From UHGV virus genome UHGV-0166854: a stretch of 20,402 nucleotides of DNA; one strand, given 5' to 3'. Both the position numbers and the translations under genes were made by a program. Under the pieces are notes generated by a model. That model had not been told where the DNA came from, did no database searches, and was given only the letters and a program-made list of their open reading frames with translations. The DNA comes from a virus. Within the stretch, counting starts at the first letter, position 1. The number at the start of each line of letters is the position of its first letter. Shown here piece after piece: positions 7,885 to 8,341 of the stretch.

Positions 7885-7900
7885 CTGTATAAATATACAG
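7885..7900 (+). promoter_or_regulatory. LexA (SOS) operator CTGT-N8-ACAG, within near-palindrome TACTGTATAAATATACAGTA
   Basis: Near-perfect match to the LexA box consensus, about 20 nt upstream of the RBS of the Tum-like ORFs. Confidence 0.75.
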
Positions 7901-7921
7901 TAACCCTTTGGGAGGGATTTC

Positions 7922-8104
7922 ATGGTTGGCGAACATTTCAGCCGAACGCAGCAAAAGTGGGCTTGTGTGCAATTTATTGCCGAGGTATCTCTGATTACAA
8001 ACTGCAAGCCATCAGACTTAAAGCTCGCGCTCACTCTCATTGCAGACCTAGCAAACAGCGAAAATAACGAAACCGAAGATGATAATTTTTATAAGGCTGA
8101 TTAG
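7922..8104 (+). CDS. Small ORF (60 aa), possible N-terminal part of a Tum-like antirepressor; ends at an in-frame TAG
   Basis: GGAGGG RBS 5 nt upstream of ATG 7922; same reading frame as the DinI-like ORF that begins 3 nt after its stop. Confidence 0.5.
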   Translation: MVGEHFSRTQQKWACVQFIAEVSLITNCKPSDLKLALTLIADLANSENNETEDDNFYKAD

Positions 8105-8107
8105 ATT

Positions 8108-8341
8108 ATGAGAATCAATATCACGCTGGATAAAGAGCAAAAAATTAGTCAGGCAACATTGGATGCACTTGAGGCTGAACTGTACCGCAATCTTCAACCT
8201 ATTTACCCAAAGACTGCTATCCGAATTCGCAAGGGCTCCGCTAATGGCGTTGAACTAAGCGGTTTGAAACTGGACGAAGATAAAAAACGAGTAATGGAAA
8301 TCATGCAGCAGGTATGGGAGGACGATAGCTGGCTGCATTAA
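8108..8341 (+). CDS. DinI-family protein (Tum-like antirepressor C-terminal module)
   Basis: MRINITLDK...DALEAEL.R..Q..YP...IRI...ANGVELSG...DEDKKRVMEIMQQVWEDDSW aligns by eye with E. coli DinI; phage 186 Tum is LexA-regulated and, as I recall, has a DinI-like C-terminus. Confidence 0.75.
   Translation: MRINITLDKEQKISQATLDALEAELYRNLQPIYPKTAIRIRKGSANGVELSGLKLDEDKKRVMEIMQQVWEDDSWLH

Follow-up and report, generated by a model that had tools for sequence, protein, structure and literature searches.

The window, i.e., the whole stretch of 20,402 nucleotides (20.4 kb) that was analysed, represents a PSP3/186-type (Eganvirus) prophage. Its genes are arranged in the order int, cI, a gene at the Apl/Cox position, cII, fil, several small genes, the replication gene A, tumA-tumB and cargo genes, with Q-P and P2-type head and tail genes further along. 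The tumA-tumB pair is hence located downstream of replication gene A, within a P2/186-like genome, and an identical copy of the prophage adjoins yfiB/dgcN in E. coli FDAARGOS_1253. The features of the locus, together with the gene of the repressor that is presumed to be the target of TumA, are the following:

7859-7864, plus strand: predicted -35 hexamer (TTCCCA) of a p95-like SOS promoter, which aligns base for base with the annotated p95 of phage 186 (TTCACA, L004 3021-3026)
7883-7888, plus strand: predicted -10 hexamer (TACTGT) of the p95-like promoter, located inside the LexA box and aligned to the -10 hexamer of 186 p95 (L004 3045-3050)
7883-7902, plus strand: LexA (SOS) box TACTGTATAAATATACAGTA, 19 of 20 bases of which agree with the palindromic consensus TACTG(TA)5CAGTA, with a single central mismatch
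7910-7916, plus strand: Shine-Dalgarno sequence GGGAGGG of tumA, -10.7 kcal/mol against the 16S 3' end, kept in relatives
7922-8104, plus strand: tumA, 60 aa, ATG at 7922 and TAG stop at 8102-8104, assigned by homology to PSP3 TumA
8102-8110, plus strand: stop-restart junction TAG-ATT-ATG, with ATT at 8105-8107; the 3-nt gap and the weak Shine-Dalgarno sequence are kept in PSP3-type loci
8108-8341, plus strand: tumB, DinI family, 77 aa, ATG at 8108, in the same frame as tumA
8344-8386, plus strand: hairpin directly 3' of tumB, lacking a U-run; minimum free energy -29.4 kcal/mol, z = -4.6, with none of 200 shuffles equally stable
2663-3523, minus strand: cI, presumed target of TumA, with two Phage_CI_repr stretches and Phage_CI_C

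The original prediction had described a near-consensus LexA box in front of a 60-aa ORF with a strong ribosome-binding site, and both parts of this description hold. The box at 7883-7902 was the only match of a consensus search in the 20.4-kb window, none of 100 shuffles gave a match, and the pattern CTGT-N8-ACAG likewise has its sole occurrence in the 20.4 kb at this site. The Shine-Dalgarno sequence of tumA can be compared with random positions of the window, 1.1% of which reach a pairing energy of -8 kcal/mol or lower. For a broader view, 29 loci were compared, of which one is that of the window, three are from phages and 25 are from genomes that belong to different species; in every one of them, a CTG-N10-CAG box is found 35 to 41 nt 5' of the tumA start. 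LexA presumably acts at 7883-7902, as judged from the sequence of the site. The predicted -35 and -10 hexamers of the p95-like promoter are separated by a spacer of 18 nt. A generic promoter and terminator scan of 7700-8700 made no call, which for the promoter can be attributed to the weakness of the p95-like hexamers.

The TAG codon at 8102-8104 is followed by one codon, ATT, and then by a 77-aa ORF in the same frame, which had been described as DinI-like and as lacking a convincing ribosome-binding site; this account is borne out as well. TumB matches the Pfam family DinI (PF06183) with an E-value of 7.4e-24 and 84.3 bits (cut-off 24.2) over profile positions 2-63 of 63, and the solved structure of E. 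coli DinI (1GHH) with an E-value of 2.6e-9 over residues 1-75. By analogy to other members of the DinI family, TumB probably acts on RecA filaments and thereby tunes the SOS response. The best ribosome-binding pairing of tumB is an AAGG located 11 nt 5' of 8108 with -3.8 kcal/mol, a background value equalled at approximately 18% of random positions. In the annotation of phage Midge, a ribosome-binding site is given at the AAGG upstream of tumB. PADLOC returned no match for either TumA or TumB.

The CI repressor of the prophage consists of 286 amino acids with two HTH domains and is 97.9% identical to CI of PSP3. A domain search with CI yielded no S24 peptidase match, in agreement with the earlier statement that it has no autocleavage domain. 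Since CI lacks such a domain, it is not subject to RecA-stimulated self-cleavage and an antirepressor is needed.

The two-gene arrangement of tumA and tumB is already annotated in PSP3 and published. Salmonella phage PSP3 (GenBank AY135486 / NC_005340; Eganvirus PsP3) is 94.2% identical to the window at the DNA level over 7802-8520, and its record names both ORFs, namely tumA ('similar to 5' end 186 tum; UV induction of prophage') and tumB ('similar to dinI and 3' end of 186 tum'). PSP3 and the window agree in the LexA box, in the TAG-ATT-ATG junction and in the placement of the locus after gene A; however, the window copy is an E. coli prophage and differs by point changes, for instance, Thr26 instead of Ala in TumA, and by other downstream cargo. 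TumA and TumB are 96.7% and 98.7% identical to their PSP3 counterparts, respectively. According to Lemire et al. 2011 (PMC3121763), Tum of phage 186 resembles an antirepressor fused to DinI. The same article states, with reference to Bunny et al. 2002 and a personal communication by G. E. Christie, that 186 tum is represented by two genes in PSP3 and Fels-2, the upstream one of which is the antirepressor; the antirepressor activity of PSP3 TumA is thus on record there as a personal communication, i.e., second-hand. The original prediction was right in its identification of an SOS-controlled, Tum-like antirepressor module that is followed by a DinI-like module.

In the 186 record, tum codes for a protein of 146 aa behind the LexA-repressed promoter p95, for which a LexA binding site is annotated. 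Several internally initiated tum products are also listed, including a 76-aa 'truncated Tum', which starts at a GTG codon and 'modulates SOS induction'. As cited by Lemire et al. (PMC3121763), Shearwin 1998 described that 186 Tum binds CI and blocks its binding to the operators. Phage 186 and the window share the promoter and LexA box nearly base for base, the position of the locus after gene A, a homologous DinI module and the class of CI repressors without autocleavage. However, both modules of 186 lie in one reading frame and are connected by a linker that is around 12 residues longer, and CI of 186 has one HTH domain and 192 aa, as compared to two HTH domains and 286 aa here. When TumA-X-I-TumB is aligned with 186 Tum (37% identity, E-value 7e-32), TumB covers residues 71-146 of Tum, the ATG of tumB falls on the internal GTG of 186 (Val71) and the TAG of the window aligns to sense codons of 186 tum (Gly69/Lys70). 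The internal start of 186 is preceded by a very strong Shine-Dalgarno sequence, AAGGAGGG (-12.1 kcal/mol), as would be expected at the position of the tumB start if two genes had been fused to give 186 tum, with the initiation signals of the second one retained. The N-terminal modules are more distant: BLASTP gave no match between TumA and the N-terminal half of 186 Tum, and a tblastn search with TumA against phages did not reach 186. A narrow TumA profile matched the N-terminal module of 186 Tum with 70% probability, and a broad TumA family profile matched residues 1-70 of 186 Tum at 9-60 with a probability of 93% and an E-value of 2.9e-7.

TumA, which is assigned to phrog_1993, has numerous relatives. 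A word-indexed search identified 152 protein clusters, nearly all of 60 to 61 aa and with identities down to 68%, which originate from Escherichia, Salmonella, Klebsiella, Citrobacter, Cronobacter, Enterobacter, Yokenella, Kosakonia, Buttiauxella, Phytobacter and others. Almost without exception, these proteins end with the residues FYKAD/E; the few exceptions are frameshifted or carry short C-terminal extensions, and the longer entries among the 152 clusters are N-terminal gene-caller overextensions through the LexA box. In an exhaustive HMM scan that covered 1.84 billion representatives, 37 TumA clusters were recovered, nearly all of them stand-alone proteins of 33 to 87 aa, and no DinI fusion was found in three longer matches of 109, 137 and 931 aa. 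As far as can be judged from these sequences, TumA is a widespread stand-alone family of around 60 aa, which is always located behind a LexA box and often lacks a DinI partner. For this reason, 186 Tum looks like the fused exception and tumA-tumB does not look like a split gene, so that the description of the locus as 'split' in the original prediction has to be reversed; if anything, 186 tum represents the fused form. The AlphaFold model of TumA, which is of moderate confidence (pLDDT 66), suggests a hairpin of two helices (residues 8-26 and 30-48) and an acidic tail that is disordered. A comparison of the TumA profile with solved structures returned only designed helical proteins and S100, which were taken as chance matches.

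Both genes carry marks of selection. For tumA, dN/dS lies between 0.02 and 0.13 wherever dS is measurable, and the non-synonymous difference amounts to just 10 to 17% where synonymous sites are saturated; by these measures, tumA is under strong purifying selection. For tumB, dN/dS is 0 to 0.03 against close, PSP3-type relatives, and not a single amino-acid change was found at a dS of 0.39 to 0.51 in loci L003, L005 and L008. Given this strong purifying selection, tumB is clearly translated.

Three readings of the in-frame TAG had been put forward in the original prediction, namely a natural two-protein arrangement, an amber-interrupted tum gene and stop-codon readthrough, and the comparison of the 29 loci favours the first and speaks against the other two. 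At the position of the TAG, sense codons are present in 186 tum and a stop in all 29 tumA loci. This tumA stop is found at one shared position throughout, with TAG, TAA or TGA as the codon. A DinI-like gene follows tumA in 11 of the 29 loci, and tumA stands alone in the other 18. Where both genes are present, the junction varies. The PSP3-type junction, a 3-nt gap in frame, is found in the window, L001-L003 and L005-L008, and L017 has an in-frame 3-nt gap with TAA as the stop codon; tumB is out of frame in L025 (2-nt gap) and L029 (17-nt gap), and so is the DinI-like gene of the E. coli HS prophage (10-nt gap). In L002 and L006, TumA is 97 to 98% identical to that of the window, but TumB just 47%, a mismatch which indicates that tumA and tumB are exchanged by recombination as independent units, which are joined at the conserved MRINITLDKEQK codons. 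Furthermore, the TAG recurs in identical or near-identical form in PSP3, SEN1, SW9, SI22, Midge, RCIP0057 and E. coli chromosomes, which argues against a sequencing error. Taken together, the shared stop, the lone tumA genes, the frame changes, the module exchange and the selection on the genes exclude a recent nonsense mutation and leave readthrough unsupported. The locus is, with high confidence, the SOS induction operon of a PSP3-type (Eganvirus, 186-like) E. coli prophage and consists of two separate genes.

The type of antirepressor appears to go with the type of repressor, as judged from the genomes in which both genes could be seen. A long PSP3-type CI with at least 73.7% identity is present in every TumA-bearing phage, i.e., PSP3, SEN1, 613R3, RCIP0057, Midge, SI22 and SW9, and a long PSP3-type CI is likewise encoded by a Kosakonia-type element (L032/L033), the TumA of which is just 72% identical. 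Phages with a fused 186-type Tum carry a 186-type CI instead, which is approximately 32% identical. This association is based on eight TumA-bearing genomes, namely the seven phages and the window, and on the one Kosakonia-type element in two metagenome contigs; the 25 genome loci stand outside of it, as their 3-kb flank is too short to include cI, and L034 is likewise short of cI. TumA thus seems to pair with PSP3-type CI and fused Tum with 186-type CI, and TumA presumably contacts the CI repressor of its own prophage.

A related system has been studied genetically in E. coli HS. In its prophage DuoHS, tum (ECHS_RS04495) is a 62-aa LexA-controlled ORF, which is followed by a separate 77-aa DinI-like gene and located after gene A. 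In the Phollow study (PMC12055606), an in-frame deletion of tum abolished mitomycin C-induced lysis, and lexA(Ind-) had the same effect. The DinI-like protein of this prophage is 79% identical to TumB. However, Tum of E. coli HS is a different allele compared to TumA (17% identity, hhalign probability 64%), the DinI-like gene is separated from it by 10 nt and has its own Shine-Dalgarno sequence, and the repressor is a short 186-type CI. The deletion thus lends support to the role of TumA by analogy, HS Tum being weakly similar. A second parallel is provided by the Gifsy prophages of Salmonella, in which a LexA-controlled operon codes for a small antirepressor (GfoA/GftA) and a DinI homologue and the repressor is inactivated by binding rather than by cleavage (PMC3121763). 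In contrast to the window, the dinI homologue comes first in these lambdoid phages and the antirepressor second, and the antirepressor and repressor families are unrelated to those described here. The Gifsy dinI homologue is dispensable for induction (PMC3121763). TumB is probably an optional accessory that stands outside the switch proper. For TumA, a role as antirepressor of the CI encoded in the window is the best-supported reading, based on the PSP3 literature, the class of CI, the pairing of antirepressor and repressor types and the E. coli HS deletion.

As the operon has two genes, the question arises how the second one is translated. The geometry of the junction suggests that tumB is most likely translated by termination-reinitiation coupled to tumA. 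Stop and start are a few nt apart and the distal Shine-Dalgarno sequence is weak, as is the case in translationally coupled pairs, and a restart at the ATG 3 nt past the TAG is favoured because tumB is almost devoid of a Shine-Dalgarno sequence of its own. The pairing energy of tumB is -3.8 kcal/mol at the 3-nt gap, as opposed to -6.9 and -9.1 kcal/mol at gaps of 10 or 17 nt, and this presence of a real Shine-Dalgarno sequence in relatives with longer gaps would be predicted if tumB translation depends on coupling where the gap is short. Alternatively, tumB of the same two-gene operon could be initiated independently of tumA at the weak AAGG sequence, which is positioned 11 nt 5' of the ATG and corresponds to the ribosome-binding site of the Midge annotation. 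A/U-rich leaders are able to support initiation without a strong Shine-Dalgarno sequence. However, the pairing of AAGG is at background level and its spacing is long, and it was the relatives with larger gaps that acquired real Shine-Dalgarno sequences; uncoupled initiation of tumB is therefore considered possible but rather unlikely.

It is very improbable that programmed readthrough of the TAG codon, or its suppression by supE, produces a 139-aa TumA-TumB fusion that serves as the active antirepressor. TAG is the leakiest stop codon, some fusion protein is to be expected in amber-suppressor strains, and the in-frame 3-nt gap is kept throughout the PSP3-type group as well as in L017 with TAA. 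Across the wider family, however, the frame changes, as L025, L029 and E. coli HS show, the stop codon varies and can be TAA, and most tumA genes are not followed by a tumB that readthrough could reach. A short stand-alone tum is required for induction in E. coli HS (PMC12055606), a finding that speaks to requirement and not to sufficiency. The hallmarks of programmed readthrough, an in-frame downstream ORF and a conserved leaky stop, were not seen across the family. A milder version, in which the in-frame TAG junction of PSP3-type phages allows readthrough at a low level (and in full in supE hosts), so that TumA, TumB and a 186-like fusion are all made, has a similarly slight chance of being correct. 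In that case, the antirepressor could be tethered to RecA filaments by way of the fusion, or the fusion could differ in potency, and 186, with its fused gene and internal start, and PSP3, with its split form and readthrough, would represent two routes to one three-protein set.

The idea that a once-fused, 186-like tum gene was broken by a nonsense mutation, leaving the prophage non-inducible by DNA damage, can draw on the single reading frame of the two ORFs, separated by TAG and one codon, and on the sense codons (Gly69/Lys70) within the single 146-aa protein of 186, but has next to no chance of being right, given that the 29 loci, which come from many genera, all have their stop at one position, be it TAG, TAA or TGA, that no fused form of TumA occurs in the 152 clusters or the scan of 1.84 billion representatives, that the viable isolated phages PSP3, SEN1, SW9, SI22 and Midge are arranged alike, that both ORFs are under strong purifying selection and that tumA stands alone in 18 of the 29 loci. 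A nonsense-interrupted pseudogene would be recognized by a stop that is absent from relatives and by relaxed constraint; here, the stop is shared and dN/dS remains at 0.02-0.13 for tumA and 0-0.03 for tumB. The original prediction had itself named two separate conserved genes with independent starts in homologous phages as a finding that would refute it, and tumA and tumB of PSP3 are such a pair.

With tumA and tumB regarded as two genes of one operon, the following model can be proposed. In the lysogen, LexA would occupy the box overlapping the -10 region of the p95-like promoter and thereby keep the operon off. Upon DNA damage, LexA would be removed and the operon transcribed. TumA, a protein of 60 aa with two helices and an acidic tail, would then bind CI of the prophage and take it off its operators, and this action would provide the route into lytic growth, CI being unable to cleave itself. 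TumB would be produced from the same mRNA, with ribosomes that end tumA at the TAG codon probably restarting at the ATG 3 nt downstream, and would probably tune the SOS response via RecA filaments.

For annotation, this means that the prophage should be given a tumA gene (antirepressor) and a tumB gene (DinI-like), and that it is expected to be SOS-inducible rather than defective. Beyond correct annotation, the significance of the locus is small. What is added to published knowledge is that TumA appears to be a widespread stand-alone family, with 186 Tum as the apparent fused exception, and that TumA seems to travel with an unusual CI bearing two tandem HTH domains. The hairpin at 8344-8386, which was passed over by the terminator scan because it has no T-run, occupies the position of the partial terminator t95a of phage 186 and may have a corresponding role.

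The CI repressor, the presumed target of the stand-alone antirepressor TumA, differs in its architecture from its counterpart in phage 186, and several further features of the window surround the LexA-controlled tumA-tumB pair (the tum operon).

Features of the window
291-1136, plus strand: 281-aa hypothetical protein, between host yfiB and the prophage integrase
2663-3523, minus strand: CI repressor, 286 aa, 97.9% identical to PSP3 CI
3645-4016, plus strand: gene at the Apl/Cox position, 123 aa
8344-8386, plus strand: very stable hairpin directly 3' of tumB (-29.4 kcal/mol, z = -4.6)
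9639-10643, minus strand: 334-aa ORF, between the tum operon and the portal gene

The N-terminal helix-turn-helix (HTH) domain of CI is a tandem duplication, in which residues ~14-93 and ~100-190 share 45% identity (E 4e-25), and both copies are followed by a single 186-type C-terminal domain. In contrast, the 186 repressor has one HTH and comprises 192 aa. The double-HTH form was found in every TumA-bearing phage seen; PMC3448106 describes the CI of PsP3 simply as longer. For the product of the gene at the Apl/Cox position, Pfam gave no domain and PHROG just a weak, Cox-like match, in line with PMC3448106, which notes that the corresponding PsP3 protein is a singleton.

The two genes of the tum operon recombine independently of each other. 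At two other tumA loci (L002, 1623-2039, and L006, 3001-3411), TumA is 97-98% identical to that of the window but TumB, which is a 186-like allele there, is just 47% identical, and a recombination breakpoint is therefore placed at the first 12 tumB codons, which are conserved. At a third locus, from an Atlantibacter MAG (L017, 3187-3416), the DinI-like gene behind tumA matches as two overlapping pieces in different frames; either tumB is frameshifted there or the assembly is wrong. Downstream of tumB, the hairpin occupies the position of the partial terminator t95a in 186 and has no U-run. Transcription may continue past it into the small ORFs at 8537-8746 and 8790-9074, which would then belong to the SOS operon.

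TumA was also found in a Kosakonia-type element on two metagenome contigs.

L032 and L033, about 2600-16186: P2-like element with int, a cI of the double-HTH form, gene A, and tumA behind a LexA box

Its TumA is 72% identical to that of the window, and tumA is directly followed by tail gene X, holin, lysozyme and tail genes; tumB as well as portal, terminase and capsid genes are absent from the element. The element may be a prophage that has suffered a deletion, or else a tailocin-like entity that lacks a head and is SOS-inducible. TumA of this type is listed in 50 blocks of the collection; beyond L032 and L033, only three places resembling them were seen.

The 334-aa ORF of the window occupies the variable position in which P2-type phages carry cargo. 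Neither Pfam nor PADLOC gave a match for it, and its sole family is phrog_11743, which is annotated as unknown function. The 281-aa protein, without a match in Pfam, shows weak PADLOC matches to models of the HEPN type (RTasHEPN, E 1.3e-4); it may represent cargo located at the edge of the attachment site.
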